Assembly: GCA_001949185.1 (NCBI GenBank)
Contig: BDGG01000011.1
Coordinates: forward strand, 703,552-767,551
Source: Ramazzottius varieornatus
Lineage: Eukaryota; Animalia; Tardigrada
Direction: 5' to 3'
Length of the DNA stretch: 64,000 nucleotides
Shown here: positions 8,134-54,280 of the stretch, piece after piece
How the letters are laid out: each line of letters starts with the position of its first letter
Numbering within the stretch: position 1 is the first letter of the stretch
Translations under genes and position numbers: made by a program
The notes under the pieces: model-generated
The model's input: only the letters and a program-made list of their open reading frames with translations
Databases searched by the model: none
What the model was told of the DNA's origin: nothing

Positions 8134-8221
8134 ATCGTACTCAACCGGTTCCTACCACCAAAATGCTGCGCATTGGCCTGTCGATGTATCCATATAGCTT
8201 TCTTCTGTGATAAGTTTGATC

Positions 8222-8378
8222 GTAACGATCCCAAGTGGCGCACGTTTCTGGTGCTGTAGGCTGGCGGGGCGCGCCACTTGGGAAAACGATCTTGTCGAGT
8301 GTTCCCAAGTAGCGCACACTCTCAGTATTACTGGCTAACAGCACGCGCCGCTGGGAAACCGATCTTGTAGAATTTGCG
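8222..8378. repeat. Two-unit palindromic array between the convergent sulfatase and cwo 3' ends
   Basis: Exact 12+25+12+25 geometry: CAAGTGGCGCAC-25-GCGCGCCACTTG-GGAAAACGATCTTGTCGAGTGTTCC-CAAGTAGCGCAC. Confidence 0.9.
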
Positions 8379-8788
8379 TGTCAACTTCCGATACCGTCGG
8401 CACAGATGTCTTTTCGCACTCAACAATGTTCGACTATACAAAGTGAAGGTAGAAGCCCACACTATGAGGATAAGACATGTCAAATGGTTTCGAATCGGAA
8501 ATAAATACAAGGTTTGAACATTGGGGATGTGGAAAAGCAACTTGTAGCAGGTGGCGCTGAATCAATAACGGTACTGTATGTAGTGTATTAAGAGTCAAAA
8601 ACTATGTACAGCTTGGTGCAGAGACAAAGGACAAGACGCTAAACTCAACCCGGAGACAAATCTAGAAAAACCAGAACACGAGAAACAAACAGAAAAGAAA
8701 AAGAGGAAACTTTGATATATCAGGAAAGATCGCTCAGTGTTGCACCGGTGTTGCATCTTTTGGCATTACGACGTCACACACTCTGGCT

Positions 8789-11700
8789 TCATGAACGCGA
8801 ATGGGACTGTGACAGGTTTAGTACGTGTGACGAAGTGGCCGATGCCGGTGCGGTGGAGGAGGTAGCGCTGCTAGGCGGCCCATGTATGATGGTCATCGGT
8901 CCGGCAATGACTGGTCCGCCATAGCCGTAATGCAGACCGTGATGGTGGGTGGTGTGGCCGTCTCGGGAGGAACTAGCGGCGATATTGAGGGAAGCCCGAC
9001 GTGGCATCAGGATGGCGTGACCACCGTTCATGTTGTTATGCACTTGGATATTACCTGCGGTTAGATTGGGGCCGGACATGGTGGTGTGGTAGGGCTGTAA
9101 CAGCGTGCTGCCACCATTACCACCCGCCACCGAAGTCGTGAAGGGTAAGACTGAGGGAAGAAGCAGCGCCGGCTGACCTGCTGCTGGCGACTGTTGGGCG
9201 TGGAAGAGAGGTCGCGGGAAAATGCTGGCCGGAGTCAGAGCAGAAGGAACTGTCAAGGTATTGCCGGAAGCGGCGCGCGTGCTGGCGCTGGCCGAGAAGT
9301 TGACGTTGATCGTTACTGGGTGACAGATGGCTGGCCCGCCTGTGAACGACATACTCGGTGGAACACCCGGCTTGATGTACTGAGAAGTTGTAAGATGGCG
9401 GCGCACGTTTCCGAAGTTTTCGGATGGAAGCCTGCGCCACTTGGGAAGAACAAACCTGTGGAGTTTACCCCGGTGGCGCAGTTTATCGGAGTTATTGGCT
9501 AGAAGCGTGCGCCACTGGAAAGAAGGATTTCGGACGTACCTTTGGTTGACTCTTGGTCAAACTCGATGAGGTGGACGTTGATGGAGGAAGGAACGTAGTA
9601 CGCGCCGGAGGAATGGAGAGCAAAGATAGGAACGGTGCCGGCCATCGGGGCTAAACCGGTAACGGGTGCCGGCTCGGAAGCCCGACGTTTGTGGCTGGCA
9701 CCAGCCGGCAGGGACTCGAAGGACCCTCCCATGTCGGAACAATCGTTGGAGCCGGAAGAGCGCGAGTCGGGACGACGCTTACCCATCAAACCACCGCGAC
9801 CCGTTTCCGAGTCGACTTCCACCTTGATGAAGTCTGGGTCGCAGCTGCCTCGTCGCACATCCGTGGCGAATCGTTCCTACAACAGACGGCAAGTTTATTC
9901 CGAGTCTGGCAGCAGATAAAGATTAGAATTCAGTCCGGAGCCAAGAGTCATTTATGTTCGTTTCTGCAAGAGCAGCCTGTCAAGTTTGTGCCCGGCACGG
10001 CTTTGACACGCATCGAATGGTTCTTAGGAAATGGCGGAAATTACGCCTTGACCTTGACAGGCAATTCTCGTAGGAAAAGGGCAGAATTCACTGGACCGCC
10101 GTGAAACTTCTCACCACCAATATTACCGACTCGATCGGAATTACCTTGATGGTACGCTTGAAGCTGTACGAGTTGGTGCTGGGGCTGGTGGAATCGCTCA
10201 GGTCTTTGGTGGAAGTAGAGATGGGTGATACATCACCGCTATCGAACATGGGCAACGTGGCTTCCGGCTCGGGAGTGATGGCTGTTTGGCCCTTGGTGTC
10301 GCTACTGGGACCACCATTGACCGGACGATAGTTTCTGCTCCAAGTATTGAAAGGACTCTGTAGCATTTCCCGCAGTTGACTGGACGAATGTGCGTCACCA
10401 GCGTGGAGTGTACTGGCACTGCCCGGTGTAGAGTTGGGGCTGTTGCAGCTATTGTGACTGCTGGTGCCGCTCTGCTGCAGCTCGGCTTCCGAATCGTAGT
10501 CGCTGGTAATGCGAATACCACCAATGTCCGACTGTGACAGGGCGCGCCCTCGATGACCACTGTTCTTGGGGGAAACAACCTGTCGGCTGCCTTCCTTGTC
10601 ATGCTGACGTCCTTCTTGCTCTTTTCGCAGTGTCGAACGGGACTCACTTTCTAGCGACCTGTCTCGCATGTGCTTCAGCGGGTTCAGTAGATCTCGCGGT
10701 AGGTGTTCTCGTAAATCTGCAAACAGCAAACGATGATTACAAAAAAGAATCCCAGCGGAATTTAGGCACACAAATCAAATCAGTTTTTTCAAGTGGCGCA
10801 CGCGTTTCGCTAACCGTAACGAAACCATGCGCCAGTTGGGACAGCAAAATTGCTGAGCTTTCAAATCGCGCACCCATTCGGCAAATAACATTGAGTACGT
10901 GCGCCACTTGATAGAAACGATCTTGTCAAGCCCGAGTGGCGTACGCTAACCGCTAATTGCACTGCTGACGTGCGCCACTTAGGAAGAACAATTACTCAAG
11001 AATCTATTGGTGTTCTGCTGTATACTTACCGATATCATGGCCCATTCGATCGATGGTATTCTGTGTATGGTTAATGAGACGCGCACAGATGCCTTCGCCG
11101 GCAAAAAACCCTTCGACATCGACCAAGTACTGTAGCACCTCGACAAAGCAGTCCTTGTAGCCGTCGGCATAGCTGCGACTAGTACTATGCTGCGTGGGAT
11201 CCTTCAAGTCCTGTTCGCCTTGTGGACTGTCGGGCGGACTCAGCTGCTCCACATCTATAAGCAGATCGAAACAAGTTTACTCTTTGGAAAGTTCTTTTTT
11301 CGAGAGGATAACTTGCTTTGGTATCGAAGAGGTAGCTTGCTCTGGATGTAGCGAATATGCTTGATGGCCATCTCGATAATTTCGGTCTTTTCGATCCTGC
11401 CACGCCCTTGCTGCAACAGTGCATAAAAACATCAGCCCCTTCTGGCCAACTCATCTCAGAATTAACTACGCCCATACCTTTCGAAGATACGAAGCAGGAA
11501 TGAGCCGACTAAGGTCTGCGAGACAGTTATTCATGCGGTCCCGGCGCCGTTTCTCGATTATGCGATGCGACATGGGATCCTGCAACATCGAAAAGCAGAA
11601 CGTTATTATCAATGATCCCAGGTTACTGATAGAATCCGCTACTCTAAGATACACTTGACACTGTACAACTATATCTGCGCCAGGCTGCGGCAGCCGGATA

Positions 11701-14700
11701 GGCAAACTGGACTCTGAAGAGGATGCATTTTTTTCGCAATTCGCGCAGGTTTCTACATTGTAGTACTGATAGCGTGCGCCACTTATGAAGTCAATCTTGT
11801 CGAGGTTCTACCACTGCGTATTTTCCTGTTTTGGGGACGTAGTATGGTGCCTCGAGCCACGTGCGTCTAACGTGGTTTTGTTCAAGGATGAGAAGCACGC
11901 TAGGAAGTTGTTTTAAGTCTGTCGAGATATCAATGGACGATCAGATTGTTCGAGCTTTCACATATCGCAACTCTGTACTGAAAACAAATGCGTAACTTGA
12001 TCCGGGCAACAAAAATTTCTTTCTCGCAACCGCAACGTAACGCAGTGGAAATGTGTGGCCTATAATCTTTTGCCTCCTTTGCTCGGCCTTCCCAGTGGTC
12101 ACAACCGCTAGCTAGTTATCAAAAGTATTTCAAAGGTTAACTGCAGGACGAAGATCACACAAAGCTGACGGGTTGTCACGCGCCACTCTCATGGGGAACC
12201 ATCGTTTGAAGTAAACAAGGTTCTCTACGCGTTTCCGTCTGCCGATACGAGATAGGCATGCGCGCATTCGAAAGTGTGGAAGGAAGGTCCGCCGCTGCTA
12301 CAGAGTTAGCATCGATCGGCTGATGCTGACGCATGCATGCAGGATGATAATAACGAGTTCTGACAACTGTTTTCCCCTTTGCAAACACAGCGTACCCTAT
12401 AGCGAGCTGCCACAGTAAGCACGCCTGTAAGAGCTGGCTCGACCTTCCCGGAAATGTTGACACATGAGGTTGCGAACGTGAACAGAACAGCCGGGGCTCT
12501 TTAGCCACGTCGTACATCCTAACCTTTTCTCTGAACCCTAAACAGTCTTCGCCATGTGACCCAAACGACGCAGGCACATGCTCCACTCAAGAACGTTTTA
12601 AAATGCAGCTGGGGACTTGTACGGCCCAAAATGAGTCCGACCCCATTCAACTTTTCGCGGTTCTTAACAAGATGCATCGCCCTGAAGGAATCCCACCAGA
12701 TGGCAAAAACAGGATTGCCCGTTGCGGGCGTAAACCTCAAAAGTTTCTCGTGCCAGCTAAAGATCTGATGTCGAGAGGTCGGAGAAAAGGTGGAAGAAGC
12801 TACTAGGGAAATGCCTCGATGCTCTATAATTTTTCCTAATACCCTACATCCGCGTGACTAGCGGGGATCTCCCTCCTAGTGCAGGTTGGGCTTCCGCCTT
12901 GTCCACTCGACCTTCGAAATAATTGCTCTGAAAGCCAGGCGCACGTGCTTTGTACATCCGCGATCTTTTCTTCATATTATCGTTCCATTTCCCCTCACTT
13001 GCGTCATCAAACACGGAAGAACCGATCCATCACCTCATCTCTAAACAACTTCTTACTAGACACCGACCATTCCAGAGTGCAGGGAAACAAACTGGGCACA
13101 AAACTCAACAAGATTTTCGTGATTGACGCGTGTTTCCGGTGTTTTCAGCCGGAGTCGTGCGCCACTTCGAAACTCGACAGGATTGTTTTCGCAGATGGCG
13201 CACGCTTACCGTTCTATTGGCTGAGTGTGTGCGTCACTTGCGACAGCCGTTTTTTCGACTTTCTTAGCCTATCGTGGGTGCTCAAAACCGCGGCGGAATA
13301 TTGACAGAAATGCGCGTGACGCTAAACAGTGATGGCTGTAAATGAGGATGAGAACGTGCTGCATGTGGCGGTGCGACTACCACGATCCATTCTTCGGCAG
13401 ACTTGCAAGCTCGACACGCTAACAGTTCAAAGTGTTCCATGAGCGAGTTCGTTGTTCCACTTTTGTTGGATTGAGTTACTTCACTGCCCGGCCATGAGCC
13501 ATTTTCAAATGGTGTCTCGAATTGGCTGCAAAGACACTTCAACTCTAGAGGTAAATGTCTGCACTCCATACAGCAAACTGGCCTGCTTGATAGTACATTT
13601 TCCAGATATCGACAAGCATGAGCTATGCCTCTTCAGTAGCAGGTAACCAAGCTGAACTGAGTACAGTGGCACATGACAAAAGCTTCCTGACGTAAACCAC
13701 GGAATCTGACCAAATGTGGTTAACAAAGAGAGCAAGGTCTAGCCTGACACGTTCAGCGGTATAATGCAATTCATGGCGGATGACGATTGCATAAGAGCTA
13801 TTGGAGGTCAAAGAGGCGGTCATCTCGTTGCATAACATCGCGCACTACTGTACGTAAGGTAGGCTACCTTGACCAGCCTTCAATTTCACGCAGCTCTCAA
13901 GCGTTCATCCGATCAGTTGTTATGTAATTCAACGTGACAGTCTATCTAACCTCGTTGTGCTGTGCAGCACTTCAAGTGCTCAAATACCGGTATATCTGAA
14001 CACGAGGGAGCTCGAGCTTACGCGATTTTCGCAGCTGAAGGTCATCTACGAAACCCCGACAAGGAAGTACAGTACATGGCCGTTGCGATGTGTCGGAGCT
14101 CTGTAAACAAACTCGCAAGACTCTTAAAGCGGCGCACCCTCCCAGCCGACAACACCGGGAAAGCGCGTCCCTTGGGAAATGCGGTGAGATCGTTTCTCCA
14201 AGCGGCGCATTCGTCCAGCCAATAAGACCGAAAATGTGCGCTACTTGTGAACTCGACAGGATCCCTTTCGAAGTGGCGCACACTCCCAGTCGATAACAGA
14301 AGAGACATGCGCTGCGGCACTTGGGAAAAGAGCTCGCGCAGCCAGGTTTTCAATTAGGGCTGGTACGCCGATGTTTACCCCGACTCCTCTTCACAATAGC
14401 GGGGAAAGCACTAATATAATGACGTCCTTGAGAAGGTGGTCATTAGGCGTCGTGCGCCATTTCAATGCCATGATCACAACTTGCTCATGGTCATCCTCAA
14501 TGGACGTTTACTACCGTCTAGCGATTATCGAGCATAATGACAGCTTCTAACACCATCGCCATTACGTCAAACCAGACGCCGCTCTGCGAACTTAAAGGGG
14601 CGTCTTTGACGTAGTTAAACACATGCCTCTCAACTTTTCTGCGAAGTTCTAACTTTGGGGATGTCTGTGTACACACTGTTTTGAGCCAGAATGTGGGAGC

Positions 14701-16744
14701 GGAGGCGGAAGTGTCAAGCCCGACGCAAATGAGAACAGTCTTGTACTTACGCGAGGTGCCGTCTTTTTCTTGCCATATCCATATTCATCATCGTGTGGCG
14801 ATGTGGAAAAGTTCAATGTTCTGCAAAGACAAGGACACATTCAAGATTATATTTAGCCAACGCCACCGATTACGCGCGATGCCATAACGTCTTTACTTGA
14901 TTTACGTAAGCAGACCTTAAAAGCTCAGCCCATTCTTGAGTTCACTATCGAGGCCAGCCACGTGTTTGTCCTCCACACAAAACTACCATATTGCAACCCT
15001 CTGACGGAAACTACACACATTATCGGCATGATAGTGCCTCTAACCATAAAGGTTCTTTCGTTTTGCCCTACGCGACTTACACGTGTCAGGTGATGTACAG
15101 CTTTAACTACAATAATTTACTTTTTTGCCGTAAATGTCAGCTCGATACTTGTACGGCGTTGTTTATATCCAAATTTCCCGCACACCCTCAATGTTCGCAT
15201 ACAAAACTGTACCGTATGCTGTCTTTGACACCTCGGGGACCCAGGCGAACGAACTCGGCTTGATCATAATTTTTTGAATGGCGCACACCTCCGGCCAGTA
15301 ACTTCGGACACGTGCGCCACTTGGAAAGCGATTTTGCCGAAATTGTTATCCCAAGTGGCGCACAAGTATGGTGTTACTGGCTGGTGGCGCGCGCCACTTG
15401 GAAAATGGATCTTTCCTCCCATTGCTTCCAGACAATTCTATGATACGAAGTACCCACGTTTTCTAGGCTCGAAGTCTTTTCGACAACGCGTTGGAATACA
15501 TTGGTCTCAACCACATAGGGAAAGACGTTCCGGGTTGTTGACGTAATAACAGCCGGTGCATGACCGCAAGTCGTGCTGGCTTTAGTTACCTAATAACCTC
15601 CGTATAGCGACAAGGTGAAATATGGTTCAAACATAGAGTGAAGACAAGTGCTTGATGCTTTCAGAGCAAAGAGTAGAAACATGCGCATACAGTCTTCACT
15701 GAAGGTGCCTACGGAGCGCGCCAACTTTGGTTAGCGTAACAGTCGGAAACTATAAAGGACCTTTGCCAAGATATGCGGGCTTATTCCGAGCGCCAAAGTC
15801 TTCTACCTTCCAACTGTTATACAATTGTTTACTCAGTCCTTACGCGACATCTTCCAGTAGTTCTAGACAATCACCCTATCCTTTCTTCGCTCAGAACGGA
15901 AGATTGCATGGGAAAAAAACTCCACTTGAACTTCCGCGCACCCCTCGCCTTTGGGTTCGAAAGTTCACAGATGCTCAAAGGTTCCAAGGAGAACAAGATA
16001 TTCGAGCATTCGCGTCCAAAGTTCGCACGTCATGTGTGACCGATCACGCATCAGAAAAAAAATTGTAAGATGACCCCGAAGAATTTCCCCAATAATCATA
16101 CAACGAAACCTTGATAGTTTTCCTAAAGGTATCAATATGTACAATCTATTCTCCTGCTGTGTTTCCCACGTCCATTATGATTCTTACCATCATACCCTAT
16201 ACAGCCTGCCACACCCTGTTGTTCCAAAGTAGCGCACGCTTCCAGCCAATAACCCCAAAAAAATGCGGCACTTGGGAAAACGAAATTGGGCCAGGTCGCT
16301 TTTCCAAGTGACGCACGCTTCGTGCCAGCAGCAGTGGAAAAGTGCGCCAGTTGGGAAAACAATTTTGTCGGGTTCATTTGTGGAGCTCACATATATAATA
16401 TTCTCGGAGACCATCAGCTTCACAAAAGAGGACAGCTACAGACTGGCTCACCGTTCCATAGAGTCTTTGCGGTGTCGTTCACTGAGGGGACTAGAATCGC
16501 GACCCGACCACTGCGGTGTACTTGAAGGTCCATAAGACGCTTCGGACATGGTCAGACCTTGACTTTGAGCGGTGGCGGGATGACTGACCAGGTTGACGGC
16601 CTGTTGGGCCACCATCAGTGAGGACATATGGGCGATGGTGGGACGCCGCAGCATTCCGCCGTTGGCCGAGGAGTAATCCATCGACATGGAAATTGGCATG
16701 CCGCTCATCAAGGACGGGCTACTCTGTACGCTACTAATCGACAT
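8789..16744 (-). CDS. cwo: Clockwork orange (cwo) bHLH-Orange transcriptional repressor; 5'-most coding exon (16452-16744) tentative
   Basis: b[37 protein letters not shown]|[19 protein letters not shown] (11330-11580). Orange domain [21 protein letters not shown]...RLINH. C-terminal cwo motifs [23 protein letters not shown] and HPVTINVNF. Confidence 0.9.
10780..11000. repeat. Three-unit palindromic array in a cwo intron
   Basis: Three CAAGTGGCGCAC-like / GTGCGCCACTTG pairs with GATCTTGTC-type linkers. Confidence 0.88.
14105..14340. repeat. Three-unit palindromic array in the long cwo intron
   Basis: AAACAAACTCGCAAGA left end; three units with CCAGCC(A/G)AYAAC-like loops. Confidence 0.88.
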
Positions 16745-19644
16745 CACAGCCCAAAAATTATTCACTGCTCGGCTTCAAATTCAAAACATTCGAAGATGAG
16801 TGTTTGTCGGATGTGTGTAATCAGGCATTCTAAGGAGGGGAGAAAAGTTTGAAAAGAAAGACAAAGATATCTCGAGTAGGCGTTCGGCCTTGGCCAAGGT
16901 TATCCACAGCGCAAATGAGGTCGTCCCTCCTAAAGATTCGTTTGTGGAACGAAGAGATGGGAAAGAGTAGGGTTGGAGATCAAGCTTGAGCTTGTCACTA
17001 ACCACATGGGGAATGACGAGGAAGAAAAAGGATACACATTTGAGGCAAAAGCTGGATAGATGGATGGATGCAGTAATGTGTAAACTGAGTCACGGTTACA
17101 GAGAGTGTGTGAGTTACTGGATTGAAGGCCGATCACTGTTACAGTTGCGTCACATGGCTGTGTCGTACCATCTCCGGTTGAAGGTTCTTCGCCTGACGTA
17201 CATACGCGAGAAATATGTAGAACTCTGGCCAGATTAATGGCTCGTACTGTATGCGATGTGAAACTTGACTGGCTATTAGCTCGGTTATGCTTGGTGAGCG
17301 ATGGACTAGATTCTTGGGCGGTTGTATGCACGAGAATCGTGACTGGCAGCTGGTTTGCTGCATGACACACTAGGATATCGTACGGTGCGTCAGTCAACGT
17401 GTGGAAAACACGATCGATTTAGCTGAGGGACCTGTGGAACCAGTGCAGCTTCTGTACAACTATGCCTCGCCGGAGTACCTTGTCACAGAACGTGAGTCGA
17501 GCGTGCGTGCATGGCCCAGCTAGGCAGTGCGGGCACAATACTTTGACCGATCGATGGGCGATCGCACGTCCCTTCGTTTCGAGACCCAAACATGCTTGCT
17601 GTCTGCAAGGTTCGCCGAAGTTGGGGAGCTCGGCAAACAAGTGGACAATATCGGTTTTCCAAGTGACGTACGCATCCAGCCACCAACAGTGATAGCGCGC
17701 GCCACTTGGAAAGCTCGACCACATTGTTTTCCCGAATGGCGCACGTTTTCTGTGTTTTCGGCGGGAGGCCTAGAGAAAGTCAGTGAGCTTCAGGTGCAAG
17801 GCGAAACACGCTCGCGCCACACTAACGAAATTTTTCTGAATGTTTCGGGATTATGAAAGGTGGAAGTTCTCCGCGATTGTTCGGGTACGGCAGTTAGCGG
17901 ACCTCTTCATGAGAAAGGTAACTGACGAGGCGGACTGATGGTAACTTGCCTTTAAGCGCACTTCGTCACATCATAGCATTGTGTACCGGAATGCTGCCAT
18001 AGACTTCGGCACGAACCATGTTTTTGCAAGGCCGGAATGACAAACTCGCGGCATGCATGGCCCACATGTCTGGCGCATCGCATGATCTGAGCGTATGACC
18101 TGGCTTGTTTTGCACTTTATTATCGGTTAAATTCACGAAGCTTGACGAACTTTGTCCAACCGACCACGCGACAAGGACCAACAGTAAGTATCGCCTTTGC
18201 AGCGATATTACACTGATCTTTGATCAACAATTGACACGGCCATTAATGAACCCACCCCCCCCCCCCCAACCTTGGCAAAAACTCGACGGGAGAGCCACAA
18301 CACGATTGCCACTCCCAACATACACTATTATGAAATAAACTAAAACTTCATGAAAAGATACCATCCGCATATCCGATGGTATCTTTCTCCCAACATAGAA
18401 GGGTTGTCTTCGGTGAACTTGTGACGTAGCTCATTGCCAAGACCTGGCGCCATCTGTACGGAGCTCGGCGAAGGGACAAGTTCACTGGTTCACCAAGTGG
18501 CGCATGCTTACAAAGTGTTATTGAACGAAAGCGTGCGCCACTTGGGGGAAAACACATCTTTGTGGAGTTTGCTTGGCGAGCGAGCTCCATCTGGTGAGGC
18601 AGAGCTGCTCGAGCCACAAAATTTCTTATGCAAGTGGGCTGCGGACAGTTCCAGGTCCGCAGATTCCCCACGACCAGGCAGTACTCAGTTCGGCTGGCTG
18701 GGGAATTTAAATTTTGCTTAAAAGCACCTGCCTCTTCCACAGTACAACGCTATTGCCTATTTCAGATTTATGTTTTCAGTGGTGTTTACACTACCGATTT
18801 GACCTATGCACTTACCCAAAAACAATACAGCTACTGCTCTATTCGGAAGACGACGGGAGCTTCACAAATATCCGTACGTCCGGAATAGCCTTCCCGAACC
18901 GCGCATTCGTCGTTTCCGCGTGCCATGCGATCTTGGTCTCGAATGATGCGTACTTAGTCCGCCTGCTAGTCCGTTCCAGCTTTTCCTACAACGAAATCTG
19001 CCGTATTACTTCAAGTCCGAACTCTCGACCGAGCGAGTCTAGGTATTCACAAATTCAGAAGAAAATACCGTCCGAATCTGACCAAGGCGCATATCCTTTC
19101 TTGCTCCTTTCTTGAGTCAAAATTTCTTGTGAGACAATATGCCATAAGCTCCGACTTACCTTCTCCTTTCCATCTCCTGATCCCCCCTAGACTCAGATGG
19201 CATACAGCAATCCAGCTGCTGTCTTTGGCCGAAACAACTTCCTGGAAAGCAAGTCGACACAGGATGAGTATCATATGGGAGTGGTGGTAAAGTTAGGAGG
19301 AAGAAAACAAAAGTAACAAAACTGAGAAATAGCCCCGCGCAAAAGGTAGCGGTCCTACTACTAGCGGAGCCCTCCACCCGTGACCCGTCGTTCAGTTTCT
19401 GCCCTGGGGGTTTGGTCTGTGGAAATTTTCGGATTCAAACAAAAATACGAGATAATTATTTCGTTTGAAAAAAATTAAAATAGTACTTCTCAGGCCTTCC
19501 GCTTAGAATCTACGGTACTCGAAGGGAAATCAACGATGAACGATCAACGTATAGTTGCAGGTGCAATCCGGAGTAATCTTCGGAAGATCGCCGTGTGAGC
19601 AGGCGAAACGCGGGGGAAGGTTCCGAAGAGCGGAAGGGGGCCAG

Positions 19645-25528: not shown

Positions 25529-25985
25529 TTCTAAATTCTATGTATACAACTTCGTCCTGTCTATCGTGTCTCATCTGTGATTTTAGTCTGGATAAGTCTT
25601 TAACTTATTGAGAACTCGAAATGGGAGATTGAAAAACAAACTCGACAGGGCTTTTTCTAAGCGGCGTACGTTTCCAGTGTCACTGGATGGAGGCGTGCAC
25701 CACTTGGGAGCGATATTGTTGTACTAAGTGGCGCACTGTTGTGCGTTATTGCCTGTAAACGTGCGCCACATGATGAATGAAACTGCCGAGTTCGCTTGTT
25801 TAGGTCCCAAGTGAGCCAGAACGGTTTTCTACGTCACTTTTTCATTTCTCGGTGGTGAAATGTCTGTTTTGATTTTGGGCTCTAATATTCCGAAATATAC
25901 ATGTAATCAGACAAGGATGCAAAAAGTACAAAATTAATTATCTCAGAAGGACTGTGAAGAAGGAAGTGTTCAAAGGTACGAAAGT

Positions 25986-27730: not shown

Positions 27731-30700
27731 TTACACTTCTCCTGGTTCGGAATGATCGTAGAACAACCTGACAGTCTTGATGGCTTCGTCAGTTGTCTTG
27801 TCTCGTTGATGGGTGTGGAGGTAGGCCAGTCTTTCTTCCAGTTGGGGGCGCGTCAGCTCTGTGCGCAGCATCAGATCATCAATGGCCGCTACGCCTTCCC
27901 GTAGCAACATACGATCCACCACGAAGGAATATGGTGTCTCCGGAGCTCTCTTGGTTATCTACAACAAAATTGAATATTTTCGTTAACGGGGTTTCAAACC
28001 AACAGAGAGCCAAATAGTAGCCCCCAAAGACCTAGCCAACAATCCAGAGCTCGACAAAAATCTCGACAAAATGGCTTTCCTGAGTGGCGCACATTTCCAG
28101 TGTTATTGCGTGCGCCGGTTGGGAAAACGGTCTTCTGGAGTTTCTCAAGTGGCGCACGCTTCCGGCCATTAACACAGAATATGTGCGCCACTTAGGGAAA
28201 CAATCTTGGTCAGATTGTTTGCTCCAAGCTCCGAAGTATCGATTTCACATTCGACAGAGATTAGCGAAAAAGATACAGCGACGCGATACAAAGGTTCCTT
28301 TACCTGAAGTGTGGAAAGAAAGTTGACAACGGCTTTGGGCAAGCCATTGCACGCGAAGAAGACGTAAAGGATGTAGGCTGGATCGCGCTGGAAACGCTTG
28401 CACATCATAGGCAGCATTTCGTTCAGCGACTTGGCTGGCTTGTTCTTCTTCTCACTCACATTAGGGCCACGACAACTGCCGCTGCTGTACGAAGCAGCAT
28501 CGACAACAATGGCATTTTCCTTGCTTGCAACTTCCGGCGCCTCTACTTCTACGACTTGAACTTGGATAATTTCGGCTGGCTTTCCCCGTTGACGAGTACG
28601 ACGCGGTACCATCGCGACTAGAAAGACACAAAAGAAATTCCTGGTTATCGCATCCCGAGGACGTGTGAGAGAAGGATAAAGCTTACTTTCAGGGGAGACT
28701 TGGTGAGCTTGACGAGACAGACTTTGCGAAGTGGAGGGTTTTGGGGAAGATCTTCGACGAGAGACAGGGTCCCTCTTCTCGACAGGTTTCGTTTCAGTTG
28801 AATGAGCTGGCTTGGTTTTTACGATCTGGCGGCTTTTGGCTCTGGTGGCGGGATGGACTTCAACCGCCGCTTTGACTGGCCTCTCTGCAACAACATTCGA
28901 TATTCAGATATCAGAATGAAAGGAAAACTCGGCAAACCAATTGGACAAGATTAAACTCCCAAGTGGCGCACGCTGCCTGCCATTAATACTATCAACGTAC
29001 GCCACTTGAAGAAACGTTATTGCCGACTTTATTTGCAGGGCTCTCAGACACGGTAGCAAAGTCTGAAAAAACGCCGTGCAGCTAATACCCTGCTGAACGT
29101 GCATCCCTTCCGGTGGTCACATGACATTGATTACTATTGATTGATGTTATACGATCACGTGAGCACCGGAAGGGATGCATTTTCAACACTCTACAAGAAC
29201 AGCAGAATTACCTGTATGGTCGGGCTTTCGAGGCGTGGCAAAGGGCACTGGTGAGGTCTTCAAGACACGCTGCTCTTGTTCAACTTCCTCCACGGGAATG
29301 ATTTCCAGCCCGATACCTTTCAACGCTCCGCGACGAGCTTCCAGTGAGTCAACCACCACATTAACCAAGTCCAGCTGTGGAAGAGATACAGCCGCAGCCG
29401 GCACAGCTGGAAAACCGACGCCATGAATACAGTACCATTCGACTAATACGTCAAGAACCAAGAGTACCTTCAATGACTGCGTTCGGTTCCGGACCTTGTG
29501 GTTCTTCAACATGAGCATCTTGTCCAACTACCATATCAACGCTGTACACCTCAGTTTGGACAGCTATTCCCTTCGAAATGTCGTAGCCTGCGTCCAGCAG
29601 CCGCGAATGTATGGGAGAACAGGCAGCGTCGCGGAAGGAAATGTCCGACCCGACGCAGCTGTCCACAGTCTCGGCCTTCTTCTCCCGCCACAGCATCGTC
29701 TGACATCCAACGCTTCCAGCTGACAACCCCTTCTCCTTCCGGCCTGCAGTACAACAAATTAGGAGGTTCTCGTGAGAGTTGTTTTTTCAAGTGGCGCACG
29801 CTTTCGGCCGATAACACCGAACCGTGCGCCACTTGGTAAACTTGGCAAGATTATTTCTCTCCAGAGTGGCGTACAGTGCATGACAAAATGCCTTCCAAAA
29901 ATGGGCGGAGCCTCTTAAATGCGAACGAGGAATCAAAATCATTGTTAAGTCAATGCGCAAATTTAATTCTCTGTGTCCAGCTGGCTCCATTCACACCCGT
30001 TTTGAAAGCATATTTTGACGTACAGTTGTATGATTTCGGTGTTACAGGCCTGAAGCCTGCGCCACTTGAGAAACAATCTTGCCGAGTTTATATGCCGAGC
30101 TGAGCTCCCACACGTCGCTGAACATGCCAAATTTACCTGATGAGTTACTCTCTGGCCTGTCTTCTTGCGGAAATGTCTCTACATCTTTAAGAAGATGGTC
30201 GTCCTCGTTGATGTCGAGGTAGATGGACGATTCGTTCGACTTGCTGGTGGCCGCTGAGGAGCGAACTCGGCGCGAAGGCGGACCTCGCATCTCCGGACGG
30301 AGATCTTCCTGGTTCCTTGCTGCCCGAACAGACTTGTTAGAGAGACGACTCTTCAGCGGTGTGGGTAGCGTTTCGTTGAGGTCCGTGGGCGACTTCAAGT
30401 TGGCCAACTCTTCGTCCACTTGCTCGTCACTACCAGCACTGGAACGCTTGTCCTTTACTTGAGGTGGCTTGGTCACGGGGACTTGCTCCTCGTCATCGTC
30501 ACTAACGATAACAAAGGGCTTCGTGCGTTTGACCACAGATACCGCGTCCTTCTGTCGTGACAGCGAGGACGGACGGCTGACTTTGTAATACTTCACGCGA
30601 ACTGGTCCTTCGTCCTCTGCAACGCAAACACACAGGCATCACCCTCTTGAAAGAAAATTCACAGCAGAATGAGACGAAAAACGAACTCCATGAGATTGTT

Positions 30701-32493: not shown

Positions 32494-33188
32494 TAAGCTC
32501 TATTTCACGAACTTGAGAAATGGCCTTTTTAATCTGTGTTCTCTCACAAAGAAGTCTGATCTGCCTCGAACTCCTTTCGGCTACACAAACCATTGCGGAG
32601 AAATGACTTTCCCATTTGGGCTACGCGACTTGAGTGGTCTTGGGGCTGGTCGGGAGCTGTCGGGCCAGTGTCGGCCATATTGGGGTTGCCACGGTTCGGC
32701 TCGGGTTTTTACGTCACAACATAACCCCCCCCCCACACGACAGTTTAAAACTAGCCTCGTGAAATTCGCACACACACACACACACACACATACACCCGCC
32801 TGATGTCATAAGAAAGAAAAAAATTTGTTTTGCACCGTATTTCGGTAAACGTATTCTCTGCGACGTCGTAAGCGTGTTTAACATTAAGCCAGGCCAGAAC
32901 GCACGGCCTTTGGCTGATCTAAAGCCTTTGCCCATTCGGTCCAATCAGACGCTACGCACGCCACGCCCTGTGACGTATCCGTGGTGTCACAGGACGACTC
33001 TGCACTTCCCATTTATAAGGGAGATGCGTTTTCTAGACTTCCGGCGCATCGCCGCACAAATCGGCTGATGCAGAAACATTTCTCCGCAATGGTTTACTGT
33101 TTGAGTTTTAAAAACGGAGGCGGTCGGATGATCGTGTGAAGAACGCGACCAGAAAAGGCCATTTCTCAAGTTCGTGAAATGGAGCTTA
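32494..33188. mobile_element. Degenerate ~700-bp inverted-repeat (foldback/MITE-like) element
   Basis: ATTTCACGAACTTGAGAAATGGCCTTTT (28 bp, ~32502) and AAACCATTGCGGAGAAATG (19 bp, ~32587) recur as exact reverse complements at ~33153-33180 and ~33077-33095. No convincing ORF inside. Confidence 0.5.
32768..32795. repeat. (CA)n microsatellite
   Basis: Run of about 11 perfect CA units followed by TACAC. Confidence 0.9.
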
Positions 33189-36209: not shown

Positions 36210-38139
36210 CTAGTCGATGATGTAGTTCATGTAGTGGAAGCCGGCATTGTCAGGACGCAGCGGATGCTTTGGTGGCAAGAGTGTGAAACCACAGAAGCGC
36301 AGAGCTCGCATCCACGATGCTAGACAGCCACAATAATAGAAATCAACCACATAAATCAAGCGAGAAAACGAGCAAACTTACCAGCATCGGGTCGTTCCTG
36401 CTGGAAGAAAACGACCACATTGCTGCATCGCAGGTGCTCTTCGGCAAACTCAAGCAGTCGAATAAAGCTATCTTTGGAGCCTTCGCCATTGGTGCTGGTG
36501 GGGATATGTACGTAGAGCGATTTACCATAGAGAACGGTGGACCAGACGCCTGCAAAGAAGTCAAACGTGAAAGTGTGGATCGAACTACTAACTTCTCAGT
36601 TGGGACGTGCGAGTTCAAAAAACAAACGCGACAGGATCGATTTTCAAGTGGCGCGCGCTTCCGGCCAAATACACCAAGAACGTGCGCCACTTGGGCAGAC
36701 AATCCTAGTCAAACTTCACGGCGGAACTTACCTTCTAAGTTGTCGGTTAATTTGTACTTGAACTGAATGTGCACTGCAGCTGATACATTGGATGAAGATG
36801 GCGCTTTCTCAGTATGATGGAGTCCCTTGATGTTCTACAAACAAGCAAACCGTCCGGTGGTAAATCCGTTAGTTACTGTAATGCTGCATGAACTTCGCGA
36901 AGCACGTCATCATACGCGTACAGTAGAATACCGGTCCGAAAATTCTGCCCTACCAACGCCCTAAGGGATTTTCGCGCGTACGATGATGTGCTTCGCGAAG
37001 TTCATGAAGCATTACAGTACATCTCCGCTATAAGACCGTCAACTCAGGGCCGTGCACCATGCACAAAGTCAAGGCCGTGCACAAACTCGCAGTGGCGTCA
37101 GCAGTTGGGCACAGCCCTAACAAGCTGTAACTAGCAAAATCAAGCTTCACGTGTTCCACATACCTTTTTGCCAACAGAAGATTTCTCTTTCCCCACACCG
37201 TTGCCTTCTGACAACACAACGGTGCAGGGAACATCAAATACACCACTTGGGTCCCCGATCGGTCAGGGAGACGCTGTAGGACCTGAAAAGAGATAAGCGG
37301 ACCATGGTTAGCGCTCGTGGTTACTAGTGGGGATCGACAAGACTAAAGACTACAGCGAACTTATACAGCCACCAGGCTTGAAATACGCTCCCGGAAGGAC
37401 TATGGAATCAATTTACATAGCTAGAGTAAACACTCTTCATCAGCTATTCCTGTCGCACTGCGGGTTTTTACGCGACCTTGAAGGCCGAGAGGACAATCGA
37501 CAAAACACTGTACAAATGTCACTAAGCTGGCTCTTCCCCTTTCCTTCCATCACATTATGGATTTTTCTCAGAGGCTCGGCCATTCCCCCGAATCGACCCA
37601 GTCATTTTTATGTCCAGGCACCTACCAGCAGTCTGCCAGACATGAAAAGCCCATCAACAGACCTCGATGGGAACATCATGTTTGCGAAGGATGGAATGCA
37701 ATAATCGATGCTACTGACGTCAGCAATCGATAACCGTGGCCCAGTAAATCACCACCGAGGTATCAACTAGCATACGGCAGGACCACCCAGGGCAGCATTA
37801 ATGGACACGCCACGATGCCTGCGGGTTTTAAACGGACAACCGTAAAACATGCCCGTCGAGACCGCCTTGTTACAGCAACAAGGACCTGGGCATTTTTACG
37901 AATATAATTTTCACGTAGTAAGTTATGCCACCAGCCTTCTAACATAAGCTGGTTGCTCTTCACCATAAAAAAAACTTCATCCAACCTACCGAATCTGGGG
38001 GCTGGTGGCCTTGTTGTTGGAGGCAAGTTGATCAGCCATGGTCGTTTGGCTGATAGGAGCACTTATTAATGGCGATTTCGTCATTGTTAATGGACGAGAC
38101 AGCAGGGTCATCTAGACGTGTGTCCTGAACTTTCTTCAT
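36210..38139 (-). CDS. Oaz: Ornithine decarboxylase antizyme, requiring +1 programmed ribosomal frameshifting; first exon uncertain
   Basis: Exons 37164-37282, 36732-36834, 36382-36549 and 36210-36319 splice in phase. ORF1 ends ...RGPKWCI*. ORF2 in the +1 frame reads DVPC...FKYKLTDNLEGVWSTVLYGKSLYVHIP...EGSKDSFIRLLEFAEEHLRCSNVVVFF...MRALRFCGFTLLPPKHPLRP...YMNYIID*, the ODC_AZ domain. The 5' exon (ATG at 38139 or 38444) is a guess. Confidence 0.92.
36874..37019. mobile_element. ~142-bp MITE with ~43-bp terminal inverted repeats, flanked by TA (Tc1/mariner-like), in an antizyme intron
   Basis: TACTGTAATGCTGCATGAACTTCGCGAAGCACGTCATCATACGCG matches the reverse complement of the right end at 42 of 45 positions; TA on both sides. 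Confidence 0.75.
37169..37245 (-). other. Antizyme +1 frameshift cassette: UGG-UGU-AUU-UGA-U plus 3' RNA pseudoknot
   Basis: ATT at 37239-37237 and TGA at 37236-37234. Stem 1 is CCCUGCACCGUUG (37229-37217) paired with CAACGGUGUGGGG (37203-37191). Loop CAGAAG can pair with downstream CUUCUG (37180-37175). Confidence 0.85.
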
Positions 38140-41744: not shown

Positions 41745-44700
41745 ATGAGCGGTTTGAAGTTTGGTCGCGCTTCGACGGGGACCGGTGGAGGAACCATCTA
41801 TGCTTCCTCTTCCAATAACGGTGAAGCGGTCACAGTTGGGTCGCGCGACAAGGTCTTCAACATCGCTGTGGTGGGACCAGTGGGCAACAGCCTGATCATT
41901 CATCACTCTTCCTCGGAGAGCAGCGGGACGCATAGCCAGGTGTCGGAAGATGGCGAGGGAGTTAGTGGTGGACCCGGCAAGTCTTGCTTGTGTGCGCGTT
42001 TTCTTCGGCCTGCCGAAGACGACTATCAACCCCGCGAACACGTCAGCGTCCTCTCTGCCGCCGACTTTGCTTCGCCAGCCATCAATAACGGTAAATTTGG
42101 TTTTTATTCTGCATATTACTTGGCGTATCGTGTTTGAAGAGCCGGTTGCCCTCTGTAGACCACTTTCTCTATTGGGGAGAAGCCAAACGAACTTCCGACG
42201 ATGGACAAGACTGCCGTTTTCAGCTGATTGAACAGACCGAGTTTATCGATGATTCCAACTTCCAGGTAAGTAACTCAGTATTGTAGTTTCGTGTTTCATG
42301 TTCATTGTGATCTTGAAGCTCGGCAAACAAACTTGGCGAAAATATTTCCCAAGTCGCGCACGGTTTTTTATTGCTTGCTGAAATCATGCGCCACTTGAGA
42401 AAATCAATCTTCGCAAGTTTGTTTGCTGAATTCACGTAGAGCAGATCGGAATCGGGATTCGTTTCTGTACAAGTCTGGGTTTATTTCATGTTTGAGTGTC
42501 ATGTGAAGGTTGCTTTACAGTGTTTATTTAGGATTGTCTGACAGCGTGTTTTTGTGTTGCAGCCTTTCCGGAGCGGTCGCGGCGACAAAGACTACGTCCG
42601 TCGCTCCACAGCCATCAAGATGCAGTCGCCCGGAAAGCTACAGTATTTCGGACGAAGTCAACTGGGTACGAGTATAGAGTAAACTATCACCCTTCAACAC
42701 ACCAAATTTGATTAGCAATCCTGCTTCGCATACAAACAATAGCCGCTCAGCGTCACGCTTGCTTGCCCATACAATGGTCTGATGACCTAAACGTCGATGT
42801 TCCTCACGCATCCAAACCTGTTTTTTCTTAGTTTATTGTAACCGTTTCTTTCGTTAACAAGTTTTGGATTGTGTGTTATTTCAAATTTTAAATTTGATTG
42901 GAAATACTGTAGAGTTCAACGACGAACTCGACAAGATCGTTTTCCAAGCGGCGCACGATTCTAGCTAATAACGCTGAAAACGTGCGCCACCCACGGAAGT
43001 AGTCTTGTCGAGTTTGTTTTAATTGTTTACTGAGCTCTCGATGATCCAAAAATCATGCTTCCGTATTTTCAATAAGTGTTTGGTAGCTTGATTTTGAAAT
43101 GCGAAATTGATTGTGGTGGTTCTTGTTGGATGCAGGTATGGAGCGCGAGTTTCAGATGGTGCCCATGTCGGATGGACGCTTCAACGTTGAAGGTTTCGTT
43201 TGTACGTTGGATGTGTCGAGTTCGACGGGTGCTTCCTGTGACGGTGCGTCAAGCATTCTGTCGTCGGCCACTTCTAAAAAGGCTCTCGGTAGCACTACCG
43301 GTCTTTCGGCAAGCCAGTCTAGCCAGATTGAAACAGTCTTTCAGCTGTTGTCGCACATTGTTCGACAAAAGAAACCCGTCGTCCTGGCTGCCACCAAAGT
43401 GGACCAAGCATCCCCTGCTCAATTAAGCGAAGCCAGCAAGCTTCTGCAACGAAAAGAACTCAAAGGTGAATCCTCTGTCCCAGTTGTCCGGAAGAAATGC
43501 AGGAAGAACAATTTGACAAGATCGTTTTCTAAAGTGGCGCACTCTTTCAGTTTACGGCACCGACAGCACGCGTCACTTTGAAATCTCGATCTTGTGAAAT
43601 TGCTCTTGCAAGTGGCGCACGTTTCCGGTTTGTAGCGCTGGACATACGCGCTATCTGATAAAACAATCCTGTCGATTTTGTTTGCTGGACTCTCAAATGG
43701 TGATGCTTATATATGACTCTAATGTAGGAAATGTGCAACTGGTAGAGACCTCCGCGCATCGCAACGTCAATGTTGATGCGGCATTCTGGCTGTTGGCGCA
43801 AGCGATAGAGCGAACTCGTTCCAGCCAGCAGCAAGGTCCGGCCATGATTCGCTATCGCCTGTCGCCTTATCAGGAAGCCGCTTCGATGCGCAAAGAAAGG
43901 ATGGAAACGGCGGCCAAAGCATTTGAAAGCCTCATTCGCACGCAAATCAAGGAGCGGAAACTAACGTGGCCCGAAGCGCAGCGCACATTCCATAATGACC
44001 AGGATTTCAAGTAAGACCCCCTCTTTTTCCACCACTTATCCCATTCATTCATCCATCGAAAAGGTTTCCTTCTCCCGCCCGCAGGTTTTACTGTGAGCTT
44101 TGGGGAACGGCTTCCGCCAAGAAGCTGTTCAACTCTTTCATGGGACAACTACGCGACCGTGAAGCACGTTCGCGCCTGACAATCTACCTGGCGAGACTCG
44201 AGCGTATCTTCCGTCAGCTTCTTACTGATGCCGCCCTCGTTAAATCCGGGTACGTGCCCTCCTTTCCCTACCATTCTCTCATATCCAACTGAGATATATG
44301 GAGATAAACTCGATAATTGTTCCACTGGCGCACTGCTCCAGCCAACAAGGCTAAAAACGTGCGTCACTTGGGAAAAATGACAAACTCGACAACATCCATT
44401 TCCCAACTAGCGCGAGCTTTCAGCTACGAAGATCAGAAGCGTGCGTAACTTCAGAAAACGATCTTGTGGAGCTCCGAGTTGACCATCCGTCATCTGCTTT
44501 ATCTTTTATAGGTGGGGTCCTTGTTTGGAGTACCTGCACGGCTTGTCAGACTATGATTCCTACTTTGCCGATCTCAGTTCTAGCAGCAACGTTCCGTTGA
44601 CTCCGCACAAACCCTCCGGTCTTTGCTCTTCCTCCACCGATTCTGCTTATGGGACCAGTAGCGTCTCGATGGCGTCGCTGGGTGGAAGTTACCAGCTGGA

Positions 44701-47700
44701 CGACGATGCCTTCTTCGAGGCAGGCGATGGCCGTGTTCCGTCGCGATTGTTGAACACCAGTGATGCTCAACGGGCTTTTGACGCTTATGCACTATCTGTC
44801 AAGCGCCGCGAAAGACAACAACGGTTCGTACTATCCCTGTACTGTGCACATATGCTAATGCCATGTAACCAGTGATAGGCGTCGATAATGACCGCTTTCG
44901 CCTTCGCTCGCCCACACTCTGCTCTCATGGCGTTACAGAGATGAACTAAGCAGCCGTGAAATAAGACAACGATTGATAGTTTTTTACTTACCCGCCCTCA
45001 TGCTGTGATGTGATGATGGCGGAAACGTGTCGATGGCTCAAGTGTGGGACGAATTATTCACGTGAGTCAGCAGAAAGCCAGTGAAGACAATTTGCAGACA
45101 GATGAATAAAGCACCCCGCCATCGAAGTTGACAGATTTATTAGTTTCCAAACTATAATTAACTTTTTTACCACCTCCATCAAGAATACATTGTAGAACAT
45201 ATCCGCGAGACGAAACGCATAATTCACTTCTCTTTGCATGTAGCCAAAGAAAGATAAAATGGAAGCTAGGTGAACGAGTTCGGTCATTTCCCGAAGTGGC
45301 GTACCTTCTCGGTGTTTTTTTCTGAAAGGATGCGCCACTTGGACCAAACATTCTTTCCAATTTTTGAAAGTGGCGCGCGTTGTCAGTGGTTTTGGTTAGA
45401 CACGTGCGCGACCTCAAAACGGTTTCTTCGAGGTTGTCTTGCCTAGGTCTCGAATCCCGCTATACAGTAGATAATTTTTGTTTCTTGCAGGCTGAAGGAC
45501 GACTTTGTAGCACTGCTGAAAGAAACACCTTATGCCCTGCCAGGTCGCTCCTACCGCGACCTGCTGGTTTTCCTGGCCAGTGAGCCCGGCTACACGGAAG
45601 AGCTGGCTCAGTTGAACAGCGCTGTCAAGGAAGAGGTCTACGCTGAACATCAAGCCGAGCTGACACAGCGAGCTGGCCTCAACTTTGTCCAGCTCCTCCT
45701 CGAGAACGTCAGTCTCTTCCAGCCCAAACCTCAGCTCATCAAGAACAGCAGCAGCAGCAGCAGCTCCTTCCCACGCAAGAAGCGGAAGGAAGCAAATAGC
45801 AATGAGGATAGGGAAGAGAGTGAGTTGAGAGACATTGAGGCAGTCTTGAGAGGCGATAAACGGTACCGAGCTATGGACCTTCTGGCTCCTCACCGCCACG
45901 TCCTCCTCACGAGGATGTATCGCTATTATCGCTCACCCTTCCCCGAAGCATGTGGTGACGGGACCAAGCCATGCTGTGATACTTCAACCATTCCCTCTTT
46001 CATTCAACAAAATATTCAAAGGTACTTTCATACACTCCTTCCAAAACGGAACTGAGGTTAACCGTTATCTCATTTTAGGACCGAAACACTGCCAGCGTTT
46101 TGGTTATACATGAAGCACAACTTTGAGAGCTCTGACTCTCCCTTGTCCGTTGTCTTGATCGGCGAGGAGCACCTAACCAGTAGCTTCAGACATTCCATCG
46201 CGGTATGTTATCTGGAAGCTCTGCAAACAAACCTGGCAAGTTATTTTTCACAAATGGCGCATACTTCCAGTGTTGATAGCTGGTAGTGTGCGCCACTTGG
46301 AATAGCTCGACGAGATCGTTTTGCCCACTTAGCGTAAACTGTCAGCGCTACTGGCTGGCAACATGCGCCACTCCCTAAATAGTCTTGTCGAGTGTGTTTG
46401 CCCAGCTGAACGAGGTCTCACTGAGAATGAAAGAATTGTTTCTTTGTCTCACAGAAAGTCTGCAAAGATTCATCGAGGACAACGAGAGGGAACGAAGCGG
46501 AGGAAGAAGTAGTACAAGTGGCAGTTGATGGGGTAGTTTATGCCATTAACTTGCCATCCTTCAACCCGGCAGATTCATCGCTCTGGAGCACCAACACGGA
46601 GCCATTCTGTCACGGTAAGTACTGCGTCCCTCTTTAGCCCGAAACTACCATCTGCAAGATGGGCGACTAGTCCATCTACGGCGGAGGAAACTAGGCTAAT
46701 GATGATGGTTATTCAATCCAATTTAAGCCCATGAATAAACAAAGAGAAATAATACCCGTTCGTTCTTTGCAGGCTGTGTATGCATTTACGACTGCAAAGA
46801 GGCATTGGAGGCAGTTGAAGTGGCCATTAGGGCGTCAGCCGATGAGGATGGACTGGCGCCGCGAAATGGGCTCCCGACCATGCTGGTCTTTGCGCCGGCT
46901 AGCGACGTCAAAGAGACACAAGTGGCGCGGCTAAGGGAAGCGGGGCAGGAAATAGCTAGCATCCAGCTGCAGTGCCTGTTCGTCGAACTGCCCAGAAGCG
47001 GAAGCGCGGTGGATAACCACAAGGAACAAGTCTGTGCGGACCATCTAAAGATGTTTGTCAGGCAGATTAACGGCAGGATCAACTTGGCGCGAAGCGTCAG
47101 CTTTTTCAGCCATCCAGAGAATGAAGCCGACACGTTCCATCACGATTTCATCGACTGCGATATCAGGTATGAACACGATCTGATGAGAGTTCGGTAAACA
47201 AAAACTCGACAGGATCAATTCTCCAAGTAGCGTACGTTTTCATTGCTATCGGTTGGAAGCCTGCGCCACTTGTAGAAACGATCTGGTCGAGTTTTGCCAA
47301 GTGGCGCACGCAGTCAGTGCTAATACCCGGAGGGCTGTGCCACTTGAGACTACGACCTTCTCTAGGCTGCTTGCCGGGCTCCCAGATGTTTTCTCTTGCC
47401 TAGTGTCGACTTGCTTTGGGTTCCTTACAGGTTGCGCCTATGCGTGATGTGTGATAGCGAAAGACCAGATGTTCAAAGCACCACGTTGTCGGTGGCTGTT
47501 GGGCCATTCACGCAGCATGTGCTGTGCTACCAGAGTCCCGAACGTTCTTCGGCCTTCCTGGTGGAGACGGCCTCTCTGACAAGCGAGGAAAGTATCTCGG
47601 ACAGCGGGCAGAGTCGAATAGAAGTGGACTGTCGTTCCTACCATGAGACCATCAGGGCCGTCAACAACACCAACACCGATGTGAGGAACGCTCTTACTGA

Positions 47701-53525: not shown

Positions 53526-53729
53526 TCCGCAAACGATTTCCGTTTTTATTCCTACAGCATTTCTCTTTTTAGTCTTTTATCTGTACAAACCCTTTCTACG
53601 TGGTTTTTGTACGGTACCGACCGAAGTTCAGACTATTCCACTTTCTGATTTTTATCTTTTTACGACTGACTATTCAGTTTCTTTTTTCACGAGCTTTCAC
53701 TACAAAGACAGTAGAGTTACGATATTCTA

Positions 53730-53940
53730 GCAGATCGTTTTTCACAGTGGCGCACGCGTCCCTCCGAAAACCTGCGCCACTTGGGAAAATAGTCCTGTTG
53801 AGTGTTGCAAGTGGTGCTCGATTCCAGCTATCACCACTCACAGTTTGCGCCACTTGGGAAGACAGTCTTGTCGAGTGTTTTCAGTGGCGCACGTTTCCAG
53901 TTAGTATCAATGGAAGCGTGCGCCACTTGGGAGATCAAGC
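53730..53940. repeat. Three-unit palindromic array between the convergent p190RhoGAP and RhoGEF2 3' ends
   Basis: Three arm pairs; the first loop is shortened. Confidence 0.85.
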
Positions 53941-54280
53941 TGATTCATTTCAGTAGACGGACAAAGTGACAAACTATGTCCATCGAATCAAAAGGAAGAG
54001 GCAGGGAATGAAGTTGAGAAAGAAGCTGAGACACAAAATGGAGAGAGAAAGAGAGAGATTGCTGGCTAGATCGCAAAAAGGCTTTGTCGGGTAAAAGGAT
54101 TTCCTTGCAGATCAGTCATAAAGCACAAACCATCGCTTCCCACCCAGCTGAGACTGGAAGTCAACTGCTGGCGAGAAACACTAGATGAAAACAGGAATAA
54201 TAATGGTCGTTTGACTCTTTCGCTTCGTATGTACAGATAAAACATAATTTTCAGGCACCCAGTGTCACAGGAGAAACCTA

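Follow-up and report, generated by a model that had tools for sequence, protein, structure and literature searches.

Copies of a palindromic repeat family keep a minimum distance from one another in a 64-kb window of the Ramazzottius varieornatus genome

The locus and its genes

The stretch of DNA considered here, referred to as the window, comprises 64,000 nucleotides of contig BDGG01000011.1 from the tardigrade Ramazzottius varieornatus (GenBank assembly GCA_001949185.1, forward-strand positions 703,552 to 767,551). All statistics given below are drawn from this single 64-kb window, and coordinates count from its first letter. Copies of a short palindromic repeat, a putative miniature inverted-repeat transposable element (MITE), recur throughout it, within as well as between genes. 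Their spacing departs from chance, and it takes the form of a minimum distance of ~0.45-0.55 kb between neighbors, not of a lattice.

Two open frames in the window correspond at 100% to R. varieornatus proteins, RvY_14998 (RhoGEF) and RvY_14997 (p190 RhoGAP). A bHLH-Orange gene, with HLH and Hairy_orange matches in the exons on either side of its 3171-nt intron (see below), and TRAPPC8 are backed by Pfam. The name "cwo" was given to the former in the initial annotation; the Pfam support reaches bHLH-Orange only. Exons of the p190 and RhoGEF genes were placed by exact protein matches (for p190, protein P0017). Other exons follow RNA joints, where these are shown, in runs X4, X7, and X10, which are presumed to be RNA and cover 40 of the 64 kb. 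The remaining exons were traced manually on the basis of splice signals, RNA joints, and open frames, with the splice ends checked, and TRAPPC8 relatives (at most 71% identity) were left out of the mapping. On this map, 47% of the window is exonic, and none of the 52 repeat clusters overlaps a mapped exon.

The repeat family

The repeat was delineated with a unit profile built from 58 seed units (nhmmer), which, run on the reversed window, yields nothing at or above 8 bits. Between positions 781 and 64000, it identifies 94 units in 52 clusters, corresponding to 51 elements when one interrupted dimer is merged, and these occupy 9,598 nt (15.0% of the window). The consensus of the window copies is 125 nt long and consists of a 50-nt arm, an asymmetric 25-nt spacer, and the inverted arm. 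Each cluster constitutes a single element, bounded by a single pair of outer ends and composed of one, two, or three units (13, 33, and 5 elements, respectively), where the unit period is 72-75 bp in 29 of 42 cases. As distances between 82 and ~240 bp from unit to unit do not occur, the threshold for merging units is immaterial. The family thus has the features of a MITE, i.e., short and non-coding elements with terminal inverted repeats in many copies (51 elements).

Compared by eye, the window consensus agrees with ramVar1-8 and, on the reverse strand, ramVar1-39, differing at a single position in each arm and at no more than one in the spacer. In the library tables considered here, ramVar1-0, -6, -8, -16, -23, -26, and -39 of this family are curated as non-autonomous DNA transposons (PMC11071193, Tables S1 and S3); for ramVar1-0, -8, -23, and -39, the consensus measures 113-125 bp, the arms are inverted over their whole length, and the spacer is that of the window family. 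ramVar1-7, of the same family, is classed as #DNA/Sola with a target site duplication of 4 bp, and the duplication is listed as "Unclear" for the six ramVar1 families looked up (PMC11071193). The core motif of the arms (see below) occurs 59 times in that supplement, while a second supplementary file gives no match, and dimer junctions are present in the raw library entries ramVar1-10, -25, -48, and -50. In the same supplement, two published hAT consensuses, ramVar4-518 and RV-B-P39.108, contain the element, in one case within an apparent intron. No autonomous partner sharing the ends of the element is found among the library rows searched; the rows with these ends are short entries or hAT entries that carry the element.

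The copies are old and their relationship is star-like: the spacers are 69% like the consensus (~31% diverged) with a binomial spread and a maximum of 92%. Subfamily mixing as the source of this divergence is excluded by the absence of linkage among spacers (p = 0.38). In aggregate, the flanks read AWWT. Among 35 arms with good ends, the counts for A at -4, W at -3, W at -2, and T at -1 are 22, 27, 26, and 24, respectively, with p = 1e-5, 0.003, and 0.008 for three of the positions, and this evidence holds for the aggregate only. In the 10 copies where both ends could be located, an exact 4-bp target site duplication is found in none and agreement at three of four bases in two; the lack of exact duplications may reflect the age of the copies, which are ~31% diverged. 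The terminal repeats, the AWWT flanks, and the published classification together suggest that the window copies derive from a transposon.

Other identities fit less well. A tandem satellite is rejected since an element has at most three units, Tandem Repeats Finder reports one such array, and spacers are 53% alike within and 52% alike between elements. Recent duplication of dimers in place is likewise rejected (p = 0.06, weak), as is a structured RNA family, the window having no Rfam match. When folded as hairpins, four of seven copies beat shuffled sequences (z -2.0 to -5.1). Two metagenome scans for similar DNA returned 0 and 33 loci, none of the 33 scoring with the unit profile, while a scan of prokaryote genomes gave one lone match (Methylobacterium) and a viral scan none.

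Positions of the elements

Element footprints are given as unit centers +/-62. On the minus strand, the bHLH-Orange gene has a 3171-nt GT-AG intron at 11580..14750 (RNA joints X4 and X10) with three elements: a monomer with a degenerate left core at 11699..11823 (nhmmer, 26 bits), a dimer with period 72 at 13082..13278, and a trimer with periods 73 and 71 at 14088..14356. A 70-nt exon at 14751..14820 (RNA joints) separates this intron from one of 1631 nt at 14821..16451 (RNA joint in X4, X7, and X10), in which reside a dimer with period 77 and oppositely oriented spacers (15237..15438) and a dimer with period 79 (16188..16391), the latter 60 nt from the 5′ exon according to the profile and RNA. 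This exon (~960 nt; 16452..17409, minus strand) lies between the elements at 16.3 and 17.7 kb, and RNA contigs end at 17409 (X4), 17264 (X10), and 17089 (X7). Upstream of the gene, a dimer with a degenerate final core is located at 17622..17819, and a monomer, which folds as a single hairpin (z = -5.1), at 18458..18582 between divergent genes. Hence, the seven clusters of the initial annotation lie where it placed them (centers 11761, 13180, 14222, 15338, 16290, 17720, and 18520), while its description of the 11.6-18.6 kb region as free of exons does not hold, given the 70-nt exon and the 5′ exon.

The clusters at 44.4-47.3 kb that it reported from exon-dense genes are likewise recovered, as four dimers in p190 introns between protein-mapped exons (44284-44490, 45255-45453, 46213-46412, and 47186-47384; centers 44387, 45354, 46312, and 47285). 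The interrupted dimer at 29750..30106, identified by reading the sequence directly, has its second spacer split by ~160 nt (29872-30030) with imperfect inverted ends; unless merged, it counts as two clusters, and it accounts for the sole gap below 460 bp. Elements at 8194-8392, 25620-25810, and 53706-53967 lie between convergent 3′ ends, where the ends of the untranslated regions are partly hand-drawn. Five elements are wholly spanned by X4 contigs, which differ from the window by ~1-2%, and all five are present there.

Some further features of the bHLH-Orange gene are a GC-AG intron at 11255-11316 and RNA contigs that run without splicing over 12945-14779, two elements included, which might reflect a retained intron, an alternative end, or the presence of DNA in the run. 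Within the long intron, 11910-12070 belongs to another high-copy repeat (DNA depth 737 in the bin relative to a background of ~23) and coincides with a contig break.

Spacing of the elements

Over the whole window, the 51 center-to-center gaps have a mean of 1236, a median of 1035, and a coefficient of variation (CV) of 0.59, compared with a CV of 1.01 upon random non-exonic placement of the collapsed elements under the identical merge rule (p = 0.0003). The CV is thus not near 1, and the proposal that the clusters are more regular than random stands. Gaps below 600 bp number three of 51 where 21.2 are expected under this null (p = 0.0003), and 69% of the gaps measure 700-1500 bp relative to 26% (p = 0.0003). 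Other nulls predict 15.9 (uniform), 17.9 (AWWT sites only), or 9.4-13.0 (one per short intron) gaps below 600 bp, and across all nulls the depletion has p = 0.0002-0.002. The availability of AWWT sites is thereby rejected as the cause of the spacing, the deficit persisting under the AWWT-restricted null (3 vs 17.9 expected; p = 0.0002). The strictest nulls, with one element per compartment and counts fixed per gene, still expect 8.6-10.8 such gaps where 2-3 are observed (p = 0.0004-0.002). The minimum gap has p = 0.20, which falls to 0.0003 once the interrupted dimer is merged.

The effect is seen in several parts of the window. With the non-exonic null, the CV has p = 0.0003 for 1-11.6 kb, 0.002 for 11.6-18.6 kb, and 0.017 for 19.5-64 kb. 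Using the strict nulls, the short-gap deficit is also present at 19.5-64 kb, i.e., outside the 11.6-18.6 kb region (p = 0.003), and in the protein-mapped 41.7-62.8 kb (p = 0.001-0.03; short gaps, p = 0.017), while for the long introns of 11.6-18.6 kb p ranges from 0.003 to 0.08 depending on the statistic. The seven elements at 11.6-18.6 kb have a CV of 0.226 as compared with 0.77 under random non-exonic placement (p = 0.002; with per-intron counts fixed, p = 0.003). This run is not cherry-picked: among the 46 runs of six gaps that the window offers, a lower CV is found in 13. Its six gaps have a mean of 1127 bp (CV 0.23) and a range of 800-1431 bp, where ~1-1.4 kb had been noted.

Measured in non-exonic bases only, the gaps are irregular over the window (CV 1.31 vs 0.90), with values of 0.43 vs 0.84 (p = 0.036) for 11.6-18.6 kb. 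The constrained quantity is thus total DNA distance. Exonic and non-exonic bases per gap are correlated at 0.08 vs 0.58 (p = 0.0003), and the floor is unchanged in the five gaps with almost no exonic DNA (638-1258 from edge to edge). Moreover, the gaps are not filled with decayed copies that escaped detection: a profile of the outer arms gives 64 matches inside elements and one outside, adjoining an element, and a profile of the spacer gives 64 inside and three weak ones outside relative to two in the reversed control.

The gap distribution is right-skewed, and the largest gaps measure 3.0 and 4.9 kb. Strict periodicity, compensation between successive gaps, and nucleosome multiples are rejected on the basis of a lattice coherence of p = 0.80 (whole window; low power at this number of elements), a lag-1 correlation of r = 0.04, and the absence of quantization at any period from 150 to 220 bp (p = 0.27 and 0.88; 47 gaps below 2.1 kb, low power), respectively. 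"Evenly spaced" is consequently apt for a distance floor and not for a period, and the suggestion of one site per 5-7 nucleosomes is not supported, given the lack of quantization and the 3.0 and 4.9 kb holes. A model of sequential insertion with hard exclusion over 450-550 bp, edge to edge, fits the gaps (Kolmogorov-Smirnov p = 0.60-0.88), while exclusion over 300 or 700 bp does not. The insertion interference put forward in the initial annotation therefore reproduces the data, as a fitted model and not as a demonstration. With a median of 1684 vs 973, the seven gaps that span a gene 5′ end exceed the others in length (p = 0.09 after correction for length bias), and the gaps without a 5′ end have a CV of 0.37 (n = 43).

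The 3.0 and 4.9 kb gaps each hold other inverted-repeat elements, which fits later stretching of these gaps. The former has 36-nt inverted arms, 97% alike and ~695 bp apart, at 32494-33188, likely a younger element, and the latter an unrelated intronic palindromic element at 36855-37038. Smaller palindromes are present at 29091-29188 and 55970-56053. The RNA-covered segment 39138-39435, which lies centrally in the largest gap, has four lone core-like half-sites (45, 126, and 126 bp apart) without spacer or arms.

Conservation of the paired cores

Within the unit, conservation stands at 87% in the paired 12-bp cores, 69% in the spacer, and 64-68% in the outer arms, and the contrast between core and spacer is seen in G/C and A/T positions alike. 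Half-sites with at most one mismatch make up 51% of 188, compared with 7% predicted from the spacer rate, and 46 of the 51 elements retain at least one near-perfect half-site. Ascertainment does not account for this conservation, since detection with the spacer alone (60 matches) still yields a median of three core mismatches in 24. Deviations in one arm are not mirrored in the other (20 of 275 vs 29.9 expected), which argues against hairpin co-repair as the cause and points to reading of the sequence. DNA methylation is an unlikely cause because, in the data of PMC8821070 for two tardigrades, only DNMT2 was found. The cores keep their exact distance from each other in 67 of 80 units, relative to 14 of 33 for an outer arm of equal length (p = 2e-5), a comparison confounded by the T/C homopolymer in the arm.

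A model for the spacing and its alternatives

The clusters are old copies of the catalogued 125-bp palindromic MITE that keep a minimum distance of ~0.5 kb, and we tentatively consider, with somewhat less than even confidence, that a protein bound to the cores is the likeliest cause. In this model, a sequence-specific protein, either a transposase or a host factor, would bind the paired 12-bp cores and, while the family spread, block new insertions within ~0.5 kb, such that the spacing would have been set at insertion. The same protein likely still binds the cores and so preserves them. Occupancy by such a protein would explain both the relic-free floor and the conserved cores.

Several points weigh against this model. 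The evidence is limited to one 64-kb window with a partly hand-drawn exon map. Under the strictest nulls, the CV by itself lacks significance (p = 0.12-0.33 for the whole window and 0.53 for 19.5-64 kb), as opposed to the short-gap statistics, and the exclusion model has one fitted free parameter, with soft exclusion fitting equally well. The confounded core distance counts here as well, and a lower mutation rate in the cores is indistinguishable from selection in these data. Neither a binding protein nor an autonomous partner was found in the window and the library rows searched. Furthermore, to our knowledge, target immunity is known only from bacterial and phage elements.

Close copies might instead have been lost after random insertion, if young, near-identical pairs were pruned through recombination or breakage, or through pre-mRNA pairing across exons. 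Relative to any neighbor, the palindromic element is a direct and an inverted repeat at once, a clean collapse to a single copy would leave no relic, as seen between the elements, and the hairpin folds of four of the seven copies described above still beat shuffles. For inverted Alu pairs that lie close together, exclusion driven by deletion has been documented (PMC3215922). Pruning, however, leaves the conserved cores unexplained, and as 45 of 50 gaps hold at least 100 exonic bases, a collapse would remove exons, while the floor is equal with and without them. We regard it as an unlikely, although serious, alternative. A related idea, fusion or capture of neighbors into multimers, is rejected: it predicts 26-27% dimers, whereas dimers make up 33 of the 51 elements, a share that none of 3000 simulations gave at any of six distances, and unit number is unrelated to the flanking gap (rho = 0.005).

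The elements could also be domesticated chromatin sites, held by selection at about one per kb, with close copies deleted and gap-fillers favored. Conserved cores in most copies, with a near-perfect half-site in 46 of the 51 elements, would be expected, as would the full length kept despite 31% spacer divergence where introns without an element are minimal in size (median 70 nt), and the gaps without a 5′ end are tight. Co-option of MITEs has a precedent in Caenorhabditis, in the part of that work considered here (10.1101/2022.01.21.477252). This explanation, on the other hand, predicts an upper bound or compensation, while there are holes of 3.0 and 4.9 kb, no lattice, and no nucleosome multiples; discarded copies left no partial relics, and the association of 5′ ends with long gaps reaches p = 0.09 only. 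On balance, selection for a pitch appears rather improbable as the origin of the spacing. For a holocentromere reading, the sole pointer comes from PMC13320866, in which Hypsibius appears as likely monocentric.

Gene architecture, with small introns that each hold no more than one element and regular exon sizes, or an atypical window is the least probable origin: 37 of the 51 elements are alone in short non-exonic compartments, and the one-per-compartment and per-gene nulls give CVs of 0.60-0.64, no different from the observed 0.57-0.59, but the same nulls expect the excess of short gaps given above, and the effect persists in the protein-mapped region and in the long introns of 11.6-18.6 kb.

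Novelty and implications

Copies of transposons in animal genomes are usually distributed at random or clumped. A half-kilobase floor that holds regardless of exons requires interference at the level of insertion or strong pruning. The family takes up 15% of the window, while total repeat in the R. varieornatus genome is given as ~16% (PMC11071193, Table 2). The repeat itself is already catalogued; its self-avoiding distribution and conserved cores appear undescribed. The curated ramVar1 library, in the entries considered, gives consensus and class only, and spacing and core conservation are absent from it (PMC11071193). In the full-text literature searched, the family is described while its spacing and core conservation are not, and this coverage is thin for subscription papers and lacks the supplements of PMC5531438 and PMC5034306, which may describe the repeat.

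Extrapolating the window density over 55.8 Mb would give about 45,000 copies. It is conceivable, albeit doubtful, that tens of thousands of putative protein-bound sites derived from this one MITE form a self-spacing grid across the whole R. varieornatus genome, about one per kb in and between genes, in which short-range target immunity has turned into a domesticated chromatin element. If the cores are bound, a radiation- and desiccation-tolerant animal may have an abundant chromatin element that has gone unrecognized.

Comparison with known systems

Sola1 MITEs, as presented in the part of PMC3845634 considered, share terminal inverted repeats, the lack of coding capacity, and the AWWT preference with the window family. 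An exact 4-bp duplication, by contrast, is found in none of the 10 window copies with both ends located, which are old, and no autonomous partner with the ends of the element appears in the library rows searched.

The exclusion of inverted Alu pairs is similar in that closely spaced copies of one repeat are scarce. In the account considered, however, the Alu effect is an imbalance between inverted and direct pairs that reaches 350 kb (PMC3215922), whereas the window family misses nearly all close pairs. Because its element is palindromic, a contrast between orientations is impossible.

The Caenorhabditis CERP2/CELE2 MITEs bound by HIM-17 also have a pair of over-conserved motifs at fixed spacing and, in the part of that report considered, act as germline promoters (10.1101/2022.01.21.477252). 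The window elements, in contrast, are mostly intronic and tend toward longer gaps at gene 5′ ends, and the protein binding proposed for them is putative.

Target immunity of Tn7, Mu, and Tn3, which are bacterial or phage elements, extends over many kilobases and involves dedicated proteins. The window family differs in having a floor of ~0.5 kb, in an animal, as deduced from copy spacing. Common to both is a lowered density of copies near an existing one, and in the window a model of exclusion fits their distribution.

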